Source: Terriglobia bacterium
Lineage (GTDB): Bacteria > Acidobacteriota > Terriglobia > JAJPHL01 > JAPKYU01
Assembly (NCBI GenBank): GCA_965206645.1
Contig: CBDBKE010000003.1
Span: 320,001 to 384,000 of the forward strand
Length of the DNA: 64,000 bases
Direction of reading: 5' to 3'
This document shows, in pieces, positions 15,143-57,290 of this stretch. The notes beneath the pieces are model-generated. The model had not been told where the DNA came from. It searched no databases and saw only the letters and a program-made list of their open reading frames with translations. Made by a program: the position numbers and the translations under genes. How positions within the stretch are numbered: position 1 is the first letter of the stretch; each line of letters opens with the position of its first letter.

Positions 15143-16542
15143 GGGTAGCAGTAAGAGTCCGAGGAAGCGTCGCCGCCTTCCAGGCGGACCTGATGGCTGC
15201 GCAGGTCTTTGAACTCCAGGAAGAAGCGCTGGTCAATCTCCATGCCACCCTCCGGCTTGGCGTTCACCTTCACCATCCAGCTACGGATGCCTTCCGGATA
15301 GAACTGGTCATCGATGGTTGAGTAGAGGGAGTTGGTGAAATAGATCCGCTGGCCGTCGCGGCTCACCTCGACCATTTGCGGCGCACCGTTCAGCGCCTGC
15401 TTGGGCTTCTTCGGGTGCGCCGCCCGGCGCACGATGCCGTCCAGATGCACCGAGCCGGTCTTCTTGGGGTTAAACGGATCGGCTCACGTCGTACTGGATA
15501 AACTCACCCGTCCCCCAGCAGGCAACATGGAGGAAGCGATCATCCAGAGAGAGGTCGATGTCGGTCACCAACGGCGGAACCGCCTTGAAGTCCTTCAGCA
15601 TGGGCGGGAGCTGATCCGGGTCAGCAGGTTCCGCGGGGATATCAATAACTTTCCGGATCGCCCAGTTGCCGTTCTTGCCTTCCTCCCGGTGCCACAACCA
15701 GATTGACGATGAAAGATCCTTGAGCGAGATCACCACGCCCAGAAAACCGTAAGCCTTGGTGGGGTTGTGAGCCGGCCGAAGATCAAAGGCCAGTTGGTAT
15801 TCCTTGCCCAGGTCCAACACCTGGCGATGGCGCCGCTGGCGCAGGTCCCAGACGTGGATGGCGTGGCCGTAACCGCTGTTGAGCAGGACCTCCGGGATCA
15901 GCCCGTTCTCAAATGTCTTCGGTGTGCCCCACTCGCTGGTGACGATGGTGTCGTAGCCCAGATGCCACCAGAAATCGCAGGCCAGGTACTGAGGTCCGCG
16001 GTCCAGCTCCCACTGGCCGAGCACCTCGAAGTTGTTTTGGTCCATCATGAAGATGCCGCCAGGCCCATCGCCAGTCGGCGAGCCGAGGGCGCTGACGTAG
16101 ATACCCCAAGGGCCACAGTGAACCGTGTGCGGCCGGCTGTAGCCGGTGCGCGCTGCCAGGGTCTCTGCTTCAATCACCTTGACGATCTTCGGCTTCCGGG
16201 GGTTGGGCTTGGTGTCAATGACGTGAATCCGCGAGGAGCGAAGGCCGGGAACGATCAGGTAGCGCCGCTCGAGGTGGGCATGCGGCGCCTGGCCGGCCAG
16301 CAGGCACTGCAGGCGCTCCAGCCGAAGTGGTGGAGCTCATCGCCAGCGTTGGGCATCTCCACCTGGCCAACAACCTGACTGTAGGTGGAAGACGCTGGGT
16401 CGACATCCACTACCGCCAGAGCGTCGTGGCGGCCTTTGTGCTTGGGATTGAGCAGGGCCAGATAGGCCAGCTTTTCCGCCGGCGCCTGCATCGCCATCTT
16501 GGGCGAGGGGTAAAACGTTGGGGCAGGTTTCAAGAGTGCCAT
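15139..16542 (-). pseudogene. Selenium-binding protein SBP56 (methanethiol oxidase-like), two frameshifts
   Basis: TFYPSP, GDELHHFGW, HTVHCGP, DFWWH, TSEWG, TDIDLSLDDRF, PQMVEVSRDG, GGDASSDSYCYP spread over three frames; breaks near 16295 and 15482. Confidence 0.9.
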
Positions 16543-48322: not shown

Positions 48323-49177
48323 TCAGTCGAAAACAACGGTCTTGTTCCCGTAAGTCAACACTCGATGAGCCAGATGCAGGCGCACTGCGCGGGCCAGAAC
48401 CACTCGTTCCAGATCCTTCCCCTTGCGAATCAGATCCTGGACTGAGTCACGGTGGCTCACGCGCGCGACTTTCTGTTCAATGATCGGACCTTCATCCAGA
48501 TCCATTGTCACGTAGTGAGAGGTGGCTCCGATCAGCTTCACGCCACGTTGGAAAGCCTGGTGGTAGGCTTGGCCCCTCGCAAAGGCCGGAAGAAAGGAAT
48601 GGTGGATATTGATGATCCGATTGGGAAAGGCGGCGACGAAATCCTCGCTCAGAATCTGCATATAGCGGGCCAGCACGATCAGGTCAATTCCTCTGGCCCG
48701 CAGCTCGCCGATCTCCCTGGCCTCCTGTTCCTTCTTGCTGGCCGCGGTAATGGGGAAGTGAAGGAACGGGATTCCGAACTCCTGCGCCACCGCATTGGCC
48801 TCCAGATGATTGCTGACGACCATTGCGATCTCGGCCTGGAACTCGCCGGCCCGGTGCCGGAGCAGTAGATCCTGGAGGCAATGCAGCATCCTGGAGGCGA
48901 AGATCGCGAGTTTCGGCGCGTCATCGCTGAAGTGGACCTCGAACTGTATCTGGTGCTCTTGGGCCAGCGGCTGAAAACGCGCGGCGATTTGCGCGCGTGG
49001 GATCTCGAACCCCTCCAGATCCCATTCCATCCGCGCCAGAAACACCCCGGTCTCGAGATCCGTGTGCTGGTCGGCGTCCAGAATGTTACCGCCGTGGCGA
49101 AAGATGAACCCGGAGATCTTGGCCACGAGCCCCTTCTGGTCGGGGCAGAAGACTAACAACGTCGCGGTCTCGCGCAT
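48323..49177 (-). CDS. purU: Formyltetrahydrofolate deformylase
   Basis: CPDQKGLVA ACT domain, LARYMQIL, INIHHSFLP, GATSHYVT, LDEGPIIEQ. Confidence 0.96.
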   Translation of the reverse strand: MRETATLLVFCPDQKGLVAKISGFIFRHGGNILDADQHTDLETGVFLARMEWDLEGFEIPRAQIAARFQPLAQEHQIQFEVHFSDDAPKLAIFASRMLHCLQDLLLRHRAGEFQAEIAMVVSNHLEANAVAQEFGIPFLHFPITAASKKEQEAREIGELRARGIDLIVLARYMQILSEDFVAAFPNRIINIHHSFLPAFARGQAYHQAFQRGVKLIGATSHYVTMDLDEGPIIEQKVARVSHRDSVQDLIRKGKDLERVVLARAVRLHLAHRVLTYGNKTVVFD

Positions 49178-49904
49178 GGGGACGGTTCGACAGATGCTTC
49201 CTCAGATCGTCTCGCGAGGAAACGATGTGCTCGGTCATGGCCCGCCGCGCTTCCTCGGGGTCACCTTTCTTGAGGGCCCGCAAGATTTTCTTGTGCTCGG
49301 CGAGGGAAACAGCGGCTCGCCGGGTCGAGTCGCTGGCCGGGGAAGACGCCAGGGTCTCCCGGATAAAGGCCTGCAGATAGCCCCGGATGGTGGTCAGCAG
49401 GTTGTGTAGGATCGAGTTCTGCGTCGCCCGGGCGATGCCCAGGTGGAACCGCAGGTCACTTTCCAGGTATTTCTCTGGATCGGCCAGCGATTTCTCCATG
49501 CCCTGAAGGGCCACTTCGATGTCGCGCAGGTCTTTCTTCGTTGCCTTCTGGGCAGCCAGATCGGCCGTTTGCGACTCCAGCATCAACCGGGTTTCCACCA
49601 GGTCCTCGACTACCTTGCGGTCCAGCAGCAGGCCCCACTGAAAGACCCGCTCCAGATAGCGGCCCGGGTCGAGGCAAACGAAGGTTCCTTCGCCCGGGTG
49701 CGATTCCAGGATCCCCATCACCGAGAGCGACCGCAGTGCCTCCCGAACCGACGTCCGGCCCACGCGGAACTGCCGGCACAGCTCCTTCTCTGAAGGGATG
49801 TGGTCGCCCGGCTTGAAAACGCTGCTCGCAATCAGAGCAGTGATCTGCTCGACGATGCCCTCGCTGAGCAACCTGCGGGCGACTGGCTGGAGAGACTCAA
49901 CCAT
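49086..49904 (-). CDS. GntR/FadR-family transcriptional regulator
   Basis: PSEKEL...VGRTSVREAL wHTH; FCD domain with D-RFH, TQN, EH--IL. Confidence 0.93.
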   Translation of the reverse strand: MVESLQPVARRLLSEGIVEQITALIASSVFKPGDHIPSEKELCRQFRVGRTSVREALRSLSVMGILESHPGEGTFVCLDPGRYLERVFQWGLLLDRKVVEDLVETRLMLESQTADLAAQKATKKDLRDIEVALQGMEKSLADPEKYLESDLRFHLGIARATQNSILHNLLTTIRGYLQAFIRETLASSPASDSTRRAAVSLAEHKKILRALKKGDPEEARRAMTEHIVSSRDDLRKHLSNRPHARDRDVVSLLPRPEGARGQDLRVHLSPRR

Positions 49905-49926: not shown

Positions 49927-49978
49927 TTTACAGCTTGCTGCCAACTGGGGTATACTAAGGTGTCAGCTTAGCAGACAA
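49927..49978. promoter_or_regulatory. Divergent promoter region with a candidate operator
   Basis: + strand TTTACA(49927)-18bp-TATACT(49951); TGTC-N9-GACA inverted repeat at 49961-49977. Confidence 0.5.
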
Positions 49979-50041
49979 GCAGGCAGGATGTCAAACGTGA
50001 CTCCCTGCCGGCCGGCACTCTCTGCCAGGAGGATCCTGACT

Positions 50042-50674
50042 ATGGGCCGAACGCTGGATCTGGGTAACCGCGTCGAACTGGTCTCGATGGATCCCCATTG
50101 CCAGGACATCACCGTTGCTCTCTATCGCCAGGATGGCGGTCACCAGCCGGAATACTTGGTGCACAGCTACAGCCGGCTGGAAGGCGTTCGCGAACGAGTC
50201 GAATTTCTGGCCCGGGCGCTCGAGAAGCTGGCGGGGGCGGAGCGGACGGACGCTCGGCTCCGCTTCTCCTGTGGCTCGGCGCACCAGGCTGGGGCCAAGC
50301 GTGGTTTTCTGGAGGCATGCAAGCTGCCCTCCACCGCGGCGCTCGAACCGAGGCCGCTCTCCGCCCTGGACAAACGGTCGGGCCGAAACATCGCCGTGGC
50401 GAGTCTGGGGGCGGGCGTCTACCAGCTGACGGCAGACGGGCCCAAGGAAGACAAGTCTAAGCGGGTGGAAGCCATCGCAGCCGGATTCCGGAAGCTAGCC
50501 GAGATGTCACCGGTGGAAGGCAGCGCCGACCGGGTGGCATTCCCCTGCGGGCAGATCCACGATGCGCTGGTCGGGTTGTTGCTTGTTCGCGCCTTGAACC
50601 TGCGCGCGGTGTTGCGCGAAGATGAGGCAGCTACCTCCCGTGGCCAGCTGGTAGCACCGAGCCAGCAAAAGTAA
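50042..50674 (+). CDS. Hypothetical protein with internal duplication (two F-x-CG-x-x-H motifs)
   Basis: First ORF of the methyl-transfer operon; FSCGSAH and FPCGQIH. Confidence 0.8.
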   Translation: MGRTLDLGNRVELVSMDPHCQDITVALYRQDGGHQPEYLVHSYSRLEGVRERVEFLARALEKLAGAERTDARLRFSCGSAHQAGAKRGFLEACKLPSTAALEPRPLSALDKRSGRNIAVASLGAGVYQLTADGPKEDKSKRVEAIAAGFRKLAEMSPVEGSADRVAFPCGQIHDALVGLLLVRALNLRAVLREDEAATSRGQLVAPSQQK

Positions 50675-50690
50675 TTCTAAGGAGAATGAG

Positions 50691-51728
50691 ATGGTCGGAC
50701 CAATGACGAGTCGCCAGCGCGTGCTGGCCGCCCTGCGTCGTGAGCCGGTGGACCGCACGCCGGTCTGCAACCCCACCTCGGTAGCCACCGTGGAGCTCAT
50801 GGACCTGGTGAACGCGCCCTTCCCGGACGCCAACCGCAAGCCGGAACTGATGGCGCGGCTGGCCGCCACCGGACACACCGAGCTCGGCTTCGACACCATC
50901 ATGCCGGTCTTCAGTATCATTCAGGAGTCCTCGGCGCTGGGTTGCAAGATCCAGTGGGAGCAGAAGGACAACTGGCCGACGGTGAGAATGCGCGAGCCGA
51001 TCTTCCAGAAGCCGGAAGACATCCGGATTCCCCCGGACCTGCTGAAGCATCCCGACATGCAGTGCGTGATCCAGGCCATCAAGATTCTGCGCCGGGAGTT
51101 CGGCGACGAGGTGGCGATCGTTGGTAAGACGATGGGGCCCTGGTCGCTGGGCTACCACTGCTTCGGCGTGGAGCCGTTCCTGCTGCTGTCGCTGGATGAC
51201 CCGGGTGCCACCAAACAGTGCCTGGAGAAACTCAAGCAGGTCACCATTGACTTTGGCCTGGCCCAGATCGAAGCCGGCGCCGACGCCCTCACCCTGCCCG
51301 ACCACGCCACCGGCGACCTGGTCAGCGGCGAGTACTACCGGCGCTACCTGCGCGACATGCACATCGAGTTTGTCGAGCGGATCCCGATCCCGCTGATTAT
51401 GCACATCTGTGGCCACACGGTGGACCGGATGGAGTACATCGCCCAAACCGGATTCGCGGCGTTTCACTACGACTCCAAGAACCAGCCGGCCGAGTCGATG
51501 GCGATCATGAAGAACCGCATCTCGCTGGTGGGAAATATCAACAATCCGGAGACCCTGTATTCGAGGGGCCCTGAGCAAGTCCGGCAAGAGGTTTGGAAGA
51601 ACCTGGACGCGGGCGTGCAGTTGGTGGGCCCGGAGTGCGCCATCCCGCTGCAGACTACGGTCGAGAACCTCAAGGAGATTCCCGGGGCCGTGCGCGAGTG
51701 GCACCGGCAGCACGCCTCGGCCAACTAG
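50691..51728 (+). CDS. MtaA/CmuA-family (URO-D fold) corrinoid-dependent methyltransferase
   Basis: MTSRQRVLAAL, GPWSLG, QIEAGAD, Zn motif H-I-C-x75-C (MHICG...GPEC), GNINNP; AAGGAG RBS. Confidence 0.9.
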   Translation: MVGPMTSRQRVLAALRREPVDRTPVCNPTSVATVELMDLVNAPFPDANRKPELMARLAATGHTELGFDTIMPVFSIIQESSALGCKIQWEQKDNWPTVRMREPIFQKPEDIRIPPDLLKHPDMQCVIQAIKILRREFGDEVAIVGKTMGPWSLGYHCFGVEPFLLLSLDDPGATKQCLEKLKQVTIDFGLAQIEAGADALTLPDHATGDLVSGEYYRRYLRDMHIEFVERIPIPLIMHICGHTVDRMEYIAQTGFAAFHYDSKNQPAESMAIMKNRISLVGNINNPETLYSRGPEQVRQEVWKNLDAGVQLVGPECAIPLQTTVENLKEIPGAVREWHRQHASAN

Positions 51729-51749
51729 GAACAGGCTTAGGAACACACT

Positions 51750-52499
51750 ATGGCGGAACTCAGCGACATTTCCAACGACTTCATCCGGCAGGAGATCGAA
51801 GAGTACATCGAGCGGCCGGAGGAGCGGAAGCGCATGATTGACACCTTCGCGAAGGTCAAGCCGAAAATGCAGACCATTGCGGCGGCGCTGATTGACGGCG
51901 ACAACGGCACGGTAGATCAACTGACCAAAGAGGCGCTGGAGGAGGGGACCGTGGCGCTGGAGGTGATGGACGACGGCTTGATTGCCGGCATGGGAATTGT
52001 CGGCATCAAGTTCCGGGAGAACTTCATCTTCGTGCCGGAAGTTCTGGCCTGCGCGCGGGCAATGAAGGCGGGCATGGCCTACATTGAGCCCATCCTGTCG
52101 GCCTCCGGCGTTAAGCCCATTGCCAAGGTCGTCATGGGCACCGTCAAAGGGGACCTGCACGACATCGGCAAGAACCTGTGCATCATGATGTTGCGAGGCA
52201 CCGGCTTTGTGGTGATTGACCTGGGAGTGGACACCTCGGCGGACCGGTTCATTGAGGCCGTCGAGGAGCACGAGGCCCCCCTGATGGGGATGTCCGCCCT
52301 GCTGACCACCACCATGCCCAACATGGGCAAGACGATCGAAGCCTTCATTGACGCCGACCTGCGAGACAACGTGAAAATCATGGTCGGGGGCGCGCCTGTC
52401 ACGCAGGACTTTGCCGACGACATGGGAGCCGACGGTTACGGCAAGGACGCAATGGCGTGTGTCGCGCTGGCCAAGCGGCTGATGGGGGTGGCGGTCTAG
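51750..52499 (+). CDS. Corrinoid-binding methyl carrier protein
   Basis: Cap domain (GLIAGM-IVG-KF...FVPEVL), GTVKGDLHDIGKNL (DxHxxG), MSALLTTTM, MVGGAPVT. Confidence 0.96.
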   Translation: MAELSDISNDFIRQEIEEYIERPEERKRMIDTFAKVKPKMQTIAAALIDGDNGTVDQLTKEALEEGTVALEVMDDGLIAGMGIVGIKFRENFIFVPEVLACARAMKAGMAYIEPILSASGVKPIAKVVMGTVKGDLHDIGKNLCIMMLRGTGFVVIDLGVDTSADRFIEAVEEHEAPLMGMSALLTTTMPNMGKTIEAFIDADLRDNVKIMVGGAPVTQDFADDMGADGYGKDAMACVALAKRLMGVAV

Positions 52500-52515: not shown

Positions 52516-52758
52516 ATGCAAAAAATCGACCAACACGAGTACCGAAAACGCCTGGACCGGCTCACCGAAATCCTGACGGGGATCTCGGCGCGCGCCGACG
52601 AGCTGTCTCTCCGGCGTTGCCCTTACAAGAATCGCCTGGACCAATGCACGGCGCAGTTTGGCTGCCGCAATAAGCGCAAGCCCAAGCAGGCTGGGGAGCT
52701 GCCCGTGTGCGCCAGCGACGACAAGCTGGATTACCGAAAGGCGTGGGAAACTGCCTGA
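52516..52758 (+). CDS. Small Cys-rich hypothetical protein (80 aa)
   Basis: Fills the gap between the corrinoid and RACo genes; RCPYKN...QCTAQFGCRN...VC. Confidence 0.75.
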   Translation: MQKIDQHEYRKRLDRLTEILTGISARADELSLRRCPYKNRLDQCTAQFGCRNKRKPKQAGELPVCASDDKLDYRKAWETA

Positions 52759-52781
52759 CCCCGGGAACCTCCTGAACAAAG

Positions 52782-54413
52782 ATGGCCCACATCTGCTACG
52801 ACAGCAGCCGCTGCAGCCTGGAGCGCGGTCGAACCGTCTTCGACTATGCCGACGAGCTCGCCATCCAGGTGCCCACCTCGTGCGGCCGTAGCGGTGTCTG
52901 TCACGAATGCATCGTGGAAATCAAGCGCGGCCTGGAAGCCCTGAGTCCGCGCAGCGAGGCGGAAGACTTCCTGCGGGAGAACTTCCGGCTGGCCTGCCAG
53001 GCGACAATCCAAAATCTCGACATTGACGTCGAGTTCGCACTGCTCCGCCGGCGTCCGAAAATCCTGACCCGTTCCGCGCCCACCGCGGTTGAACTGGATC
53101 CGCTGGTCACTCGCGCCGGAGATAAAGTCCTCTACGACGGCGCGGTGATCGACGACTACCGTGGCCACCTCTACGGCTTGGCCATCGACCTGGGCACCAC
53201 CACCATCGTCATCGAGCTGGCGGATCTGGAGACCGGCGAGGTGGTTTGCCTGGTTTCGCTCGAGAACCCGCAGCGCTTCGGCGGCAGCGACATCATGCAC
53301 CGCATCTCCTACGATTCGGGCCAGTACCAGGGCGAGTTACACAAAAGCGTGATCCGGGAGGTCAATTACGAGCTGAAGGAGATGTACCGGGCGCTGGGGA
53401 TTAGCCGCCACCAGATTTATGAGACGGTGCTGGTGGGCAACTCCACCATGCGCGACCTGTTTTTCAACCTGGACGTGCAGTCGATCGGCCAGCGGCCCTA
53501 CAAGTCCCTGGTCGAGCAGGAATACCTGGCCGGGAAGCGGCAGACGACCGCGCTGATCGAGCTGGCCCATCGCCTGGGCCTGCTGACACATCCGAAGGCC
53601 CGCATCTTCGGGGCTCCCTTGGTGGCCAGCCACGTAGGCGCCGACGTGGTTGCCGACCTGGTAGCGATCGATATCGCCTCGCAGCGCGACCCGGTGATGT
53701 TGGTGGACGTGGGCACCAATACGGAGGTGGTGGTGGGCCATGCCGGCCGACTGTTGGCCGCCTCCTGCCCCGCCGGTCCGGCCTTTGAGGGCGGCCTTAT
53801 CAAGTACGGGATGACCGCCGGCGACGGAGCTATCGAGGCACTCGAGCTGAATGGGAGCGCCTGGAAGTACCGCACCATCGGCGAGGTTCCACCCACGGGA
53901 ATCTGCGGCTCGGGCCTGATTGATTTGCTTGCCGAGCTGCGCCGCCACGAGCGGATGACACCCAAAGGTGTCTTTGCCGACAAGCAACGCGAGCTCCCTA
54001 TCGTGCCGGAACACGGCATCACTTTTTCCCGCCTGGACGCCAGCAATCTGGCCCAGGCCAAAGGCGCCAATTACTGCGGCCAGTTTATTGTGCTGCGCCA
54101 GTTCGGCGTGTGCCCGGCCGACATCAGCCGGCTCTACCTGGCCGGCGGCTTCGCCAACTACATCAACGTGCGGAATGCGATCGAGATCGGGTTCCTGGCG
54201 CCGGTACCTGAGGACCGCGTGGTCAAGGTAGGCAACTCCGCGGTCGCCGGAGCGCGCCAGATGCTGCTCTCACGCAGGAAACGCCGCGCCATCGAAGAAC
54301 TGGTTCAGCGCATCGAGCACATTGAGCTCGAAATGACCCCCGACTTTTTTGACGTCTTCGTCGAAGCCTGCCAATTTAAGCCCATGCCGGCGGCGTTCGG
54401 AGGCAAGACGTGA
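52782..54413 (+). CDS. ATP-dependent reductive activator of corrinoid proteins (RACo/DUF4445, ASKHA) with an N-terminal 2Fe-2S domain
   Basis: SCGRSGVCHEC...RLACQ, AIDLGTTT, NPQRFGGSDIMHRI, VGNSTM, DVGTNTE, AGPAFEG, GICGSG, LAGGF. Confidence 0.93.
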   Translation: MAHICYDSSRCSLERGRTVFDYADELAIQVPTSCGRSGVCHECIVEIKRGLEALSPRSEAEDFLRENFRLACQATIQNLDIDVEFALLRRRPKILTRSAPTAVELDPLVTRAGDKVLYDGAVIDDYRGHLYGLAIDLGTTTIVIELADLETGEVVCLVSLENPQRFGGSDIMHRISYDSGQYQGELHKSVIREVNYELKEMYRALGISRHQIYETVLVGNSTMRDLFFNLDVQSIGQRPYKSLVEQEYLAGKRQTTALIELAHRLGLLTHPKARIFGAPLVASHVGADVVADLVAIDIASQRDPVMLVDVGTNTEVVVGHAGRLLAASCPAGPAFEGGLIKYGMTAGDGAIEALELNGSAWKYRTIGEVPPTGICGSGLIDLLAELRRHERMTPKGVFADKQRELPIVPEHGITFSRLDASNLAQAKGANYCGQFIVLRQFGVCPADISRLYLAGGFANYINVRNAIEIGFLAPVPEDRVVKVGNSAVAGARQMLLSRRKRRAIEELVQRIEHIELEMTPDFFDVFVEACQFKPMPAAFGGKT

Positions 54414-55957
54414 ACGAATCGCCCGCACCCACGCGGCCATCTTCCGGAGCTTGGAGCAAGCGCACATTCCGGCACCTGCTGGAGGAAACCTCCAGTTTCG
54501 TCACCGTGGTCGAGCTGGTGACTTCCCGGGGGCTGATCACGGAGCGCAGCGGTCGCCGCATTCTGGAAATGGCGCGATTGCTGGCCGAGCATCCTCGCTT
54601 CCACGCCCTGAGCATCACGGACAACCCCGGCGGCCACGCTATGCTCAGCGCCGACACCCTGGGTACGGACCTGATCTCCCGCGGCCAGGAGGTCATCATC
54701 CACCTCTCCTGCAAGGACTGGAACCGCAACGCCCTGGAGAGCCGCGGCTGGAAGCTGTCCAGCGAAGGTTTTCACAACGTGCTGGCACTCTCGGGCGACT
54801 ACCCGGTGACCGGACACCAGGGTCAGGCCGCCCCGGTCTTTGACCTTGATTCGGTCAGCCTGCTGGAAATGTTCTCCCAGATGGAGGGGACCAAATTTTT
54901 CCTCGGCTCGGTGGTGAACAATTACAAGCGGTATGAGGGCGAGGTGATGCCGCAGTACTTCAAGCTGGCCAAGAAGATCGAGTCTGGCGCCCGCTTCATC
55001 ATCAACCAGATCGGCTACGACGCGCGCAAGCAGGATGAGCTACTGCGCTACATGGCGCTGAAGGGACTCCAAGTGCCCGTGCTGTGCAATGTATACGTCC
55101 TCAGCGCCTCCGCCTCACGCTTCTTCCACGCTGGCCGGATTCCCGGCGCCGTGGTCACCGACGACCTGCTGGCACTGGCCGAGGAGCGGGGAGCCTCGCC
55201 CGACAAGGGCAAGGCATTCTTCCTGGAGTTCGCCGCCAAGCAGTGCGCCATTGCCCGGGGACTCGGCTATCGGGGGGTCTACCTGGGGGGGCATATGCGG
55301 TTCGAAGACTACGAGCGGATCCTCCAGATCTGGGACAGCTTCGGCGACAATGACTGGAAGGAGTTTGCCCGCCAGATTCGTTTCGCTCAGCCTGAGGAGT
55401 TCTACTACTTTGAGCCCGATCCAGAGACGGGCCTCAGTTCCTCGGAGGTCAACCGCGAGTACTTACGCTCGAAAGCCTCGCCGGCCGGCGCGCCGCTCTC
55501 CTACCGGCTCAACCGCCTGGTGCACGGGAAGGTATTCGAGAAGGACAGTTCGGGGTTCCGGGCAGGAAAGGCGCTCTACCAGTCGGTGGAGGGGTCGCCG
55601 CGGATCCGGAAGACGCTACACGCGGCTGAGCACGCGTTCAAAATCCTCGCCTTCGACTGTCAGGACTGCGGCGACTGCTCGCTCCCGGACATTGCCTACC
55701 TCTGTCCCGAGTCGCAATGCGTGAAGAACCAGCGCAACGGTCCCTGCGGAGGAACACGGCAGGGCCTGTGCGAAGTTGGAGAGAAGGAGTGCATCTGGAG
55801 CCGCGCCTACCAGCGCCTGAAGGCCTATGGCGAGGAGGAGCAGATGCTCGACCGGCCGGTGGTCTTCCGCAATGGGGCGCTGCGAGGCACCAGCGCCTGG
55901 GCCAATGCCTTCCTCGAGCGGGATCATAACGCCAGCAAGAAGCCGAAGGAGCAATGA
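54410..55957 (+). CDS. metF: Methylenetetrahydrofolate reductase fused to a C-terminal MetV-like Cys-rich domain
   Basis: ITDNPGG, HLSCKDWNR, NVLALSGD, KKIESGARF; C-terminal CQDCGDC...CPESQCVKNQRNGPCGG...CEV...CIW. Confidence 0.9.
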   Translation: MNESPAPTRPSSGAWSKRTFRHLLEETSSFVTVVELVTSRGLITERSGRRILEMARLLAEHPRFHALSITDNPGGHAMLSADTLGTDLISRGQEVIIHLSCKDWNRNALESRGWKLSSEGFHNVLALSGDYPVTGHQGQAAPVFDLDSVSLLEMFSQMEGTKFFLGSVVNNYKRYEGEVMPQYFKLAKKIESGARFIINQIGYDARKQDELLRYMALKGLQVPVLCNVYVLSASASRFFHAGRIPGAVVTDDLLALAEERGASPDKGKAFFLEFAAKQCAIARGLGYRGVYLGGHMRFEDYERILQIWDSFGDNDWKEFARQIRFAQPEEFYYFEPDPETGLSSSEVNREYLRSKASPAGAPLSYRLNRLVHGKVFEKDSSGFRAGKALYQSVEGSPRIRKTLHAAEHAFKILAFDCQDCGDCSLPDIAYLCPESQCVKNQRNGPCGGTRQGLCEVGEKECIWSRAYQRLKAYGEEEQMLDRPVVFRNGALRGTSAWANAFLERDHNASKKPKEQ

Positions 55958-57006
55958 AACCTCAAGGCTTGAACAAAGAGTTCGTTGTCATCGGGGAAAA
56001 CATCCACACGACCCGCGTCTTGCGCCGCGCTGGCAAGCTGGTCACCACCACTCCCAGCGGCGAGGAGGCGGTCCGCTACATCAGCGCGAGCGGAGAAACC
56101 CGCTACCTGATCATCCCGAAAGAGGTCAAGCGCCAGCAGGACTATGAAGAGGGACGCGTCAAGCACGTGGCCATCGCGGTGCGGGCGGCCATGTCGGGCG
56201 CCGAGCCCGCCGCCAGCGAAGGAATGCAGTACCTGCGCGCGCTGATGGCGCGGCAGCTCAAAGGCGGCGCCGACTTCCTGGACTTGAACGTGGACGAGGT
56301 CTCCCTCTACCCGGACAAACAGCTCGAAGCGATGCGCTGGCTGGTGCGCGCCATCGAACCGCTGGCGCCGGTGCCGCTCTCGATTGATTCCTCCAATCTG
56401 GACACCATTCGCGCCGGCATTCAGGCCTGCTCGGGGAGCACAGGCCGGCCCATGCTGAACTCCGCCTCGCTGGAACGGCTGGAGGCGTTGGACCTGGCCC
56501 GGGAGCGAAACCTGTCGGTGATCGTCACGGCCTCTGGCTCCAGCGGCATGCCCCAAAACACCGAGGAGCGAGTGGCCAACGCCTCCCAGGTGATCGATAC
56601 CGCCCTGGCTAAGAGCCTCCCCATCGAGGACCTTTATGTGGACGGCCTGGTCTTCCCCATCTCGGTGGACGGTCAGTTCGGAAACCATTACCTGGAGGCG
56701 ATCCGCCAGCTGCGTGAGAAGTACGGCGAGAAGATTCACCTGACGGGCGGCTTGAGCAACGTGTCGTTTGGGCTGCCCTGCCGCCGGCTGATCAACGAGG
56801 CGTTCATCAATCTCTCCGTGGAAGCCGGCGCCGACTGCGGCATCGTGGACCCGGTGGGTAACGACCTGAACCGGGTGTTCGCAGCCGACAAAAATTCCCA
56901 GCCCTATCAGCTGGCCCAGGACATGCTGCTGGGACACGATCGCAACTGCAAAAACTTCCTCCGCGCCTACCGCAAGGGGGAACTGGAGCCGGTCACGGCT
57001 AGGTAG
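55954..57006 (+). CDS. Pterin-binding methyltetrahydrofolate:corrinoid methyltransferase (AcsE/MetH folate-domain-like)
   Basis: VIGENIH, GADFLDLN, LSIDSS, MLNSAS, GGLSNVSFGLP. Confidence 0.9.
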   Translation: MKPQGLNKEFVVIGENIHTTRVLRRAGKLVTTTPSGEEAVRYISASGETRYLIIPKEVKRQQDYEEGRVKHVAIAVRAAMSGAEPAASEGMQYLRALMARQLKGGADFLDLNVDEVSLYPDKQLEAMRWLVRAIEPLAPVPLSIDSSNLDTIRAGIQACSGSTGRPMLNSASLERLEALDLARERNLSVIVTASGSSGMPQNTEERVANASQVIDTALAKSLPIEDLYVDGLVFPISVDGQFGNHYLEAIRQLREKYGEKIHLTGGLSNVSFGLPCRRLINEAFINLSVEAGADCGIVDPVGNDLNRVFAADKNSQPYQLAQDMLLGHDRNCKNFLRAYRKGELEPVTAR

Positions 57007-57014
57007 GGAAACAC

Positions 57015-57281
57015 ATGGCCAAATACCAGATCCTCTACTGGAAGCATATCCCGGCGCAGGTGAAGGTGTCCGCCGAGGGCCAGAGAACTCTGTCGCGGCC
57101 GATGCCCGACCGGTTCCAGGAAGAGATTGACAAGATCGCCATGAGGGAAGGCTTGGCCGGCACCGACGACTATCTGAATCAGTGGAACTGGACGCCGAAA
57201 CAGGAACGGCCGGGCACTCCAGAACAGGTGGCTGAGGCCCTGATTCAGGAACTGGAGCAGCAGGTGGAGTTCACTGAATGA
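57015..57281 (+). CDS. 'Virulence factor' family small protein (Virulence_fact-like)
   Basis: ILYWKHIPAQV...RFQEEIDKIAM-EGL-GTDDYL-QW. Confidence 0.8.
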   Translation: MAKYQILYWKHIPAQVKVSAEGQRTLSRPMPDRFQEEIDKIAMREGLAGTDDYLNQWNWTPKQERPGTPEQVAEALIQELEQQVEFTE

Positions 57282-57290
57282 TTAGGTCCG

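Follow-up and report, generated by a model that had tools for sequence, protein, structure and literature searches.

A corrinoid operon pairing an MtaA-type methyltransferase with a constant partner protein: a candidate methyl-harvesting system in a Terriglobia bacterium and its relatives

Results

An operon around an MtaA-like gene

We analysed a stretch of 64,000 nucleotides (hereafter the window) from the genome of a Terriglobia bacterium of the phylum Acidobacteriota (GenBank assembly GCA_965206645.1, contig CBDBKE010000003.1, positions 320,001 to 384,000), with a focus on P0001, a predicted zinc methyltransferase of the MtaA/CmuA family. Its gene is the second of an operon on the forward strand that encodes, in order, a protein of about 210 amino acids (the partner), P0001, a corrinoid protein (P0002), an open reading frame (ORF) of 80 amino acids, a RACo-type activase (P0004), a methylenetetrahydrofolate reductase fused to a MetV-like domain (MTHFR/MetV, P0005), a pterin-binding methyltransferase (MeTr, P0006) and a small PF13769 protein (Table 1). 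The genes are spaced by -4 to 24 bases, with 21 bases between those of P0001 and P0002, and a gap of 80 bases separates the operon from a divergent gene for a GntR/FCD-family regulator, the ninth gene of the set. The partner gene, directly 5' of P0001, had been missed by the preliminary description of this DNA.

Table 1. Features of the locus, gene junctions bridged by assembled contigs from public runs, and related genes elsewhere. The last column counts matches among the best 80 related loci, many of them cut by contig ends, in tblastn searches with the window proteins.
Feature	Position	Strand	Families and other evidence	Loci matched (of 80)
purU, formyltetrahydrofolate deformylase	48323..49177	-	TIGR00655, 379 bits against a cut-off of 286; ACT and Formyl_trans_N; lies beyond the regulator	4
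GntR/FCD-family regulator	49086..49904	-	PF00392 and PF07729; divergent from the operon	52
Sigma-70-like promoter match	49927..49956	+	10 of 12 hexamer letters; weak	
GTATAC palindrome	49949-49956		shares letters with the second hexamer of the sigma-70-like match	
Partner protein, about 210 aa	ORF 49988-50674, probable start ATG at 50042	+	AGGAGG 7 nt before the ATG; homologues start there	78
Predicted zinc methyltransferase of the MtaA/CmuA family (P0001)	50691..51728	+	345 aa; TIGR01463, alignment to 4ay7, structural model	
Corrinoid (B12) carrier (P0002)	51750..52499	+	249 aa; PF02607 and PF02310; D-x-H-x-x-G at residue 135	67
80-aa ORF	52516..52758	+	conserved; fused to the RACo N-terminus in some relatives	62
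RACo-type reductive activase (P0004)	52782..54413	+	Fer2, RACo middle region and ASKHA: PF00111, PF17651, PF14574	59
MTHFR fused to MetV-like C-terminal domain (DUF5981) (P0005)	54410..55957	+	PF02219 and PF12225	34
Pterin-binding methyltetrahydrofolate:corrinoid methyltransferase, MeTr/MtgD-like (P0006)	55954..57006	+	PF00809, 67 bits	43
PF13769 small protein	57015..57281	+	59.7 bits	38
Junction partner/MtaA-like, bridged	50393-51320		X15 record 10	
Junction MtaA-like/corrinoid, bridged	51300-52031		X11 record 4 and X17 record 20; zero differing letters	
Junction 80-aa ORF/RACo, bridged	52546-52931		X11 record 5	
Junction MeTr/PF13769, bridged	56753-57290		X17 record 21	
SBP56/methanethiol-oxidase family gene	15148-16530	-	PF05694; in three pieces	
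YitJ-type homocysteine S-methyltransferase/MTHFR	G000:C4:889198-891063 (L083:1465-3330)			

Zinc motif, predicted fold and family of P0001

P0001 carries the segments MHICG (from residue 237) and GPEC (from residue 313), which place H238, C240 and C316 in an H-x-C-x75-C arrangement. Taken bare, this motif is weak evidence, as the loose pattern H.C.{70,80}C occurs in 575 of 20,000 shuffles of P0001. It becomes meaningful because homology backs it. Among solved structures, the top match is MtaA of Methanosarcina mazei (4ay7; E 1.7e-54, 188 bits with HMMER), and in the HMMER alignment the H-x-C and the last cysteine of P0001 fall in the same columns as the 4ay7 ligands. Furthermore, the three residues are invariant in all 39 rows of a family alignment (A2), ten of which are only 36-49% identical. 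The preliminary description had reported an MtaA-type gene with an intact zinc motif beside a corrinoid gene, and these results, together with the 21-base gap, bear it out.

The family scores agree with this assignment. P0001 matches the Pfam family URO-D (221 bits) and passes both TIGR01463 (mtaA_cmuA, 254.3 bits against a cut-off of 235.4) and NF004889 (250.9 against 244), and it lies under the equivalog cut-offs for MtaA (NF040654, 234.8 against 400) and MtbA (NF041608, 198.3 against 600). The AlphaFold model (pLDDT 94.6) superposes on 4ay7 with template modelling (TM) scores of 0.94/0.96 and a root-mean-square deviation (rmsd) of 1.4 Å over 338 columns, which suggests an MtaA-type TIM-barrel fold; against HemE structures, the TM score is about 0.8 and the rmsd 3.1-3.8 Å.

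The identity of P0001 as HemE was considered and rejected, in keeping with the preliminary description: the hemE model gives it 66.9 bits against a cut-off of 302.95. The true hemE of the genome scores 415.3 bits and adjoins hemH on another contig, and hemE apart, the genome has one MtaA-like gene. On the evidence of its sequence, P0001 is an MtaA-type enzyme with a histidine and two cysteines as predicted zinc ligands. We conclude that it acts on the substrate side of a corrinoid system, a role that the preliminary description had also proposed.

To place P0001 among its relatives, we inferred a maximum-likelihood tree of 83 rows: P0001, the N-terminal half of CmuA, six clade members and 75 sequences that represent 50%-identity clusters of a full HMMER scan. 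P0001 belongs to a clade of seven rows on a long stem (support 100/100), which is nested in a group of 31 rows (100/93) of unnamed proteins; the rows that score above the equivalog cut-offs for MtaA or MtbA fall outside this larger group. CmuA lies outside all other rows on a branch of 3.13 changes per column, a length that makes its exact place unsure. The cluster records of the closest relatives of P0001 offered no functional name. As a separate observation, the 31-row group includes an MtaA-like domain fused to a 3-dehydroquinate-synthase-like domain (aroB model, 339 bits) in a protein of 686 amino acids (P0158).

A constant partner protein without a family name

The partner has no match in Pfam or NCBIfam. 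A profile search identified 884 relatives, and the 120 that are listed are 207-260 amino acids long, lack a Pfam domain and are called 'hypothetical protein' wherever they are named. The gene is present in a single copy in the genome. The AlphaFold model (pLDDT 88.3) consists of two similar beta-alpha halves followed by a less confident C-terminal tail. Aligned with each other (97% probability, E 7.7e-11), the halves bring two F-x-C-G-x-x-H motifs into register. The residues C95, H99, C187 and H191, a duplicated C-x3-H, are invariant in a second alignment (A3) that includes divergent homologues, as are D35 and the R-G-x-L motif of the tail. We infer that the partner may form a Cys2His2 metal site across a pseudo-dimer and use its tail for docking. 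Comparison with known structures gave no clear match: the best E of a Foldseek search of the PDB was 0.08, a wide VIA-align search peaked at Z 6.9 for 88 residues within one half, and the ESM Atlas had no usable match. A structural kinship of the modelled partner to any known fold can be neither claimed nor excluded from these searches.

The module is conserved in at least nine phyla

Of 8000 candidates scored in a word-based search, 3207 were counted as relatives, and identity is 80-98% in the 120 best clusters. In a collection with one genome per species, at least 502 related stretches were confirmed out of 543 pattern matches. Across the best 80 loci, which come from at least nine phyla, P0001 is 79-87% identical. 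By their record titles, the carriers include Acidobacteriota, Latescibacterota, Poribacteria, Gemmatimonadota, Lentisphaeria, Planctomycetota, Opitutales, Acidimicrobiia and metagenome-assembled genomes of Alphaproteobacteria; Verrucomicrobiota are among the carrier phyla. An identity of about 80% across phyla points to a strongly constrained, ecologically relevant reaction.

The partner gene lies 5' of the MtaA-like gene in all but two of the 80 loci; in these two (L039 and L075), the sequence upstream of the MtaA-like gene ends after 304 and 102 bases, respectively. A homologue of the GntR regulator occupies the same position in 52 loci. Within this set, similarity is far higher for the MtaA-like and corrinoid proteins (76-91% identity) than for RACo (59-77%), MeTr (56-77%) or the partner (46-58%). 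In 15 loci, a homocysteine S-methyltransferase of PF02574 is encoded between MTHFR and MeTr, an assignment made by clustering and a Pfam scan of one representative. Four natural fusions of the MtaA-like and corrinoid proteins (607-634 amino acids, 76-83% identity) belong to the clade of P0001.

The pairing also holds within the phylum of the window. Among 301 genomes, the partner profile and P0001 (E <=1e-40) match the same 13, and in all 13 the two matches are at most about 100 bases apart. The other 12 genomes carry a divergent version (MtaA-like protein 66-68% and partner 34-36% identical) that keeps the gene set but rearranges it in the order PF13769, partner, MtaA-like, MeTr, corrinoid, 80-aa ORF, RACo and MetV/MetF. 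The copy in the window is closer to those of other phyla than to those of its phylum-mates, a pattern that fits horizontal spread as far as sequence likeness can tell.

A metagenome scan seeded with a protein of the sister group yielded 80 loci. The core clade, defined by at least 73% identity to P0001, accounts for 47 of them. Where a core-clade locus reaches at least 700 bases upstream (34 loci), the partner was found in 30, and where it reaches at least 900 bases downstream (36 loci), the corrinoid gene was found in 33. Eighteen core-clade loci extend at least 6 kb downstream; seven have a PF02574-like gene, six have MeTr and one has both.

Six Poribacteria loci (L027, L043, L045, L048, L062 and L074) differ in their surroundings: the pair of partner and MtaA-like genes stands alone, with no corrinoid gene nearby, between mraW/ftsL/PBP genes on one side and a Rieske/cytochrome b cluster on the other. 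The corrinoid carrier of these genomes must be encoded elsewhere. Genes inserted in related loci encode HNH nucleases, transposases and, in three Poribacteria loci, a PhyH-like protein, and the families that recur in the flanks, sugar and housekeeping genes, are lineage-specific. No hint of a substrate was found in the flanks of the divergent version, of the solo homologues at 58-76% identity, or of the sister group at 41-56% identity (P0133-like), which is likewise solo.

The other genes of the operon and its flanks

The genome (4.4 Mb, 97.9% complete) yielded no methyltransferase-type corrinoid protein other than P0002; its remaining PF02310 matches lie in frames of 138-158 or 516-615 amino acids and are of different types. 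The 80-aa ORF has no family match. In seven of the 23 loci examined (L023, L035, L061, L070, L072, L073 and L079) it continues into the RACo gene by about 1.9 kb, and it is probably an N-terminal RACo module. P0005 is the second MTHFR of the genome, the housekeeping MTHFR domain being part of the YitJ-type protein encoded elsewhere. P0006 scores 191.5 bits on NF005719, under the cut-off of 259. The PF13769 gene also occurs 3' of the PF02574 gene in metagenome loci, and its product constantly accompanies the folate or the homocysteine arm. The genes that follow it in the window, for an M19 dipeptidase, a cyclophilin and an OPT transporter, are each conserved with the module in none of the 80 loci.

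On the other side, purU is loosely linked and lies outside the conserved module. The nearest models of the regulator are NanR and LldR. The sigma-70-like site in the divergent intergenic region is a weak prediction, as one such site was seen against 1.9 in shuffled sequences; the palindrome that overlaps it is a possible operator. No Rfam family was found in the locus.

Parts of the operon are present in 20 of the 24 public runs listed, five of which are on record as RNA. Contigs from four metatranscriptome runs of two studies match the operon at 95-100% identity, and some of them bridge four gene junctions (Table 1); only the parts covered in this way were counted as evidence.

Comparison with known corrinoid systems

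P0001 shares its family, predicted fold and zinc ligands with the methanogen enzymes MtaA, MtbA, MtsA and MtpA, which likewise work with a separate corrinoid protein. MtsA and MtpA take a methyl group from dimethylsulfide (DMS) or methylmercaptopropionate. Unlike MtaA and MtbA, P0001 scores under both equivalog cut-offs and sits in its own clade (100/100). It differs from the methanogen enzymes in that it occurs without a coenzyme M context, in aerobic-type bacteria, next to a folate arm and with a partner of 210 amino acids.

The rest of the operon resembles a different system. When the Pfam domains of the window are compared with the published description of the MtgB-C-D-E/MetF2/RamA hub of Ruegeria pomeroyi and Phaeobacter inhibens (PMC12478193), a comparison by description only, the operon genes other than the partner and P0001 match MtgC, MtgD, MetF2 and RamA: both systems have the same type of carrier, a pterin-binding methyltransferase, an adjacent second MTHFR and a RACo/RamA activase. 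According to Mausz et al. 2025, genetics in R. pomeroyi showed that one MtgC and one bidirectional MtgD serve two functions: MtgB demethylates glycine betaine, and the homocysteine module MtgE makes methionine (PMC12478193). The same study describes MetF2 as adjoining mtgD and as the most induced protein on methyl donors, and reports a RamA-type activase. The substrate enzyme of that hub is MtgB, of the MttB/MtgB family (PF06253); this family has no match in the 97.9%-complete genome, and the MtaA-like protein and partner stand in its place. The homocysteine module (MtgE, PF02574) is missing from the window operon but lies inside the operon in the 15 relatives mentioned above. In the operon studied here, the constant small companions are the PF13769 protein and the 80-aa ORF. 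No paper on a module of MtaA-like protein and partner was found in the literature, although the datasets in the supplements of PMC12478193 or PMC10418091 could still list it.

The preliminary description had named a split CmuA-like enzyme as one option, and the architecture supports this. CmuA of Methylorubrum extorquens CM4 (617 amino acids, plasmid pCMU01) contains the two domains in the same order, with P0001 aligning to residues 6-344 and P0002 to residues 357-608. CmuA keeps the H-x-C...C motif, the fusions in the P0001 clade reproduce its layout, and P0002 is 32% identical to its corrinoid half. An orthologous relationship is a different matter. The genes are split in the window, P0001 is only 23% identical to the methyltransferase half (41.6 bits) and far from it in the tree, and the cobalt-ligand histidine that P0002 keeps (D-L-H-D-I-G) is a glutamine in CmuA (N-T-Q-D-I-G). 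A tblastn search of plasmids with P0001 at E 1e-5 did not find CmuA, although a direct search of pCMU01 did, and the ORF that adjoins cmuA in L089 is unrelated to P0006. CmuA is described as having diverged early in the superfamily (PMC13222342).

These likenesses raise the possibility that the system is a methyl halide dehalogenase, in which P0001 and P0002 would do the job of CmuA by moving the methyl group of CH3Cl, CH3Br or CH3I to the corrinoid, P0006 would be the analogue of CmuB, and MTHFR and PurU would act downstream. The cmu pathway has the same logic of a folate-side methyltransferase, MTHFR and PurU, which purU and the second MTHFR of the window recall. A gaseous substrate would also account for the lack of a transporter. 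However, GntR/FCD regulators tend to respond to carboxylates, which suggests a carboxylate effector. MtgC-type carriers are reported to be close to CmuA (PMC12478193). The haloalkane enzyme CdmB is zinc-free, so that halide activation needs no thiolate-type zinc site (Bernhardt et al. 2026, PMC13222342). Considering also the distance to CmuA, we regard a halide dehalogenase as unlikely.

The type 1 mlp clusters (Kountz and Balskus, PMC10418091) have the same kind of MtaA-like His-Cys-Cys enzymes with a corrinoid protein and a RACE/RACo activase, and a role in methyl-sulfur or methyl-selenium metabolism has been proposed for them. In the available account, they encode Mlp2 and Mlp3, often with Mlp1, and no folate methyltransferase, and they occur in obligate anaerobes, mostly Firmicutes; a partner of 210 amino acids is not among the components described there. 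Membership of P0001 in such a cluster was rejected, as the genome has one MtaA-like gene and the operon a pterin-binding methyltransferase. By analogy with the Mlp enzymes, P0001 could still be a demethylase of methyl selenides or methylated metal(loid)s. A His-Cys-Cys site favours soft ligands, the Cys2His2 partner could bind a soft metal(loid), and ClMlp2 is reported to prefer selenide over sulfide (PMC10418091). This alternative is very unlikely in our view: mlp clusters have at least two Mlps, no selenium genes were seen near the module, and a folate and MTHFR arm for harvesting carbon makes little sense for trace selenium.

Enzymes of the UroD superfamily also act as substrate-side methyltransferases (MT1) in the O-demethylation of methoxylated aromatics or other methyl ethers by acetogens, and the soil or peat origin of many carriers, taken from record titles, fits lignin-derived methoxy compounds. 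Some GntR regulators sense aromatic acids. The Cdm and O-demethylase systems (CdmB, MtvB, OdmB and MtoB; PMC13222342) have the same general layout of UroD-superfamily MT1, corrinoid protein and folate-side MT2, but belong to a different branch of the superfamily, whereas P0001 lies inside the MtaA-type branch. No O-demethylase or CdmB chain is among the 17 PDB sequence matches or the Foldseek rows listed for P0001. Within the superfamily, His-Cys-Cys is described as marking S- or Se-methyl enzymes, and O-demethylases as replacing one or both zinc cysteines (PMC10418091); both are invariant here. An O-demethylase is therefore the reading to which we assign the least probability, and we consider it highly improbable.

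Direction of methyl transfer

The operon could in principle run towards a methylated compound or away from it. Transfer from methyltetrahydrofolate (methyl-THF) to the corrinoid and on to a thiol would make P0001 an unusual methionine synthase, an enzyme that forms methanethiol or a thioether, or one that methylates a cysteine of the partner. MtaA proper runs towards a thiol, the partner cysteines are invariant, and MTHFR, MeTr, the corrinoid protein and a zinc-thiol enzyme make up a complete route from methylene-THF. Furthermore, no full-length MetH was found in the genome. Methionine synthesis is nevertheless provided for by a full MetE (1115.7 bits), the alternative methionine synthase that the preliminary description had proposed to look for, and by a bifunctional YitJ-type protein that joins homocysteine methyltransferase to MTHFR (759.6 bits against a cut-off of 453), the homocysteine domain of which could, in principle, also use P0002. 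Relatives point the same way. The PF02574 module stands beside the MtaA-like gene in the 15 loci above and in seven of the 18 long metagenome loci, where a second homocysteine methylase would be redundant, and loci with the homocysteine arm only would have two methyl acceptors and no donor. Absence of MetH is not a property of the module either: a full MetH occurs alongside it in two of the five module-bearing phylum-mates checked, and a mutual exclusivity of the two fails on this count. We consider the reverse direction improbable, and the methionine synthase that the preliminary description had entertained as one option is unlikely for P0001.

Several observations argue for methyl harvesting, that is, transfer from a donor to the Co(I) corrinoid and then to THF. 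The genome has another MTHFR besides that of the operon and encodes MetE and the anabolic route at other sites, and P0001 is the only visible source of methyl groups in the relatives that have only the homocysteine arm. A divergent GntR/FCD regulator is, in addition, typical of catabolic operons. Harvesting is thus the probable direction, in line with the catabolic reading of the preliminary description.

Discussion

We judge it somewhat better than an even chance that P0001 is the MT1 enzyme of an aerobic-type corrinoid hub that feeds methyl-THF. In the mechanism that we propose, the His-Cys-Cys zinc site of P0001 would, together with the Cys2His2 partner, bind the heteroatom of a small methylated compound, and the methyl group would pass to the Co(I) form of P0002. 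P0006 would move it on to THF, and P0005 would oxidise methyl-THF to methylene-THF for one-carbon oxidation or biosynthesis. RACo and the 80-aa ORF would re-reduce Co(II), and the GntR/FCD regulator would control the operon.

As the zinc triad points to a sulfur-bound methyl group, the most likely donors would be S-methyl compounds, such as methanethiol, DMS or a methylthio-carboxylate like methylmercaptopropionate; we hold this assignment tentatively, at a little less than even odds. A gene of the SBP56/methanethiol-oxidase family lies elsewhere in the window and deserves mention since the operon may act on methanethiol. One frame covers model positions 2-80 and 334-453, another covers positions 80-341 and ends in TAA, and the two frame changes near 16290 and 15475 indicate a broken gene or an assembly error.

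Several points weigh against methyl harvesting by P0001 and its partner. The zinc motif leaves room for halides, as CmuA keeps it and acts on chloromethane. The direction is read from context, and genomes in which only the homocysteine arm is seen could have a MeTr gene at another site. The linkage of purU, which the preliminary description had counted in favour of catabolism, turns out to be a weak argument, with purU in only four of the 80 related loci. No transporter, sulfur-handling gene or other gene that would reveal the substrate is conserved near the module. As for the partner, its metal site and its pairing with P0001 are predictions, and ten metagenome loci (58-70% identity) and four core loci, in mixed contexts, have no detectable partner; among the thirteen partnerless loci with an MtaA-like gene 58-76% identical to that of P0001, L168 also carries a corrinoid gene. 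This type of enzyme can therefore work without the partner. Finally, the assembled RNA contigs show neither level, strand nor a single transcript, and carry-over of DNA is possible.

With these points in mind, a bolder proposal is that P0001 and the Cys2His2 partner form a new two-protein methyltransferase, in which the partner, a new metalloprotein fold, would deliver or activate the substrate. It would transfer methyl groups from a methyl thioether or methanethiol (or a methyl halide) to cob(I)alamin in aerobic bacteria of many phyla from soil, peat and groundwater and in sponge symbionts, would channel these groups, taken from volatile methylated compounds, into folate or methionine, and would be an unaccounted biological sink for such trace gases. 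We put this forward as a possibility that is rather more likely to fail than to hold.

If P0001 does harvest methyl groups in this way, a B12-dependent route known from methanogens and a few methylotrophs would be widely used by oxygen-exposed bacteria of many phyla, and the carriers would take methyl groups from an as yet unnamed compound. Folate and corrinoid genes described as 'Wood-Ljungdahl-like' have reportedly been found in sponge symbionts, and the present reading may alter how such genes are interpreted. Once the substrate is named, the module would provide a marker gene for part of the methyl-sulfur or methyl-halide cycle, and a function for a partner family of at least 884 members.

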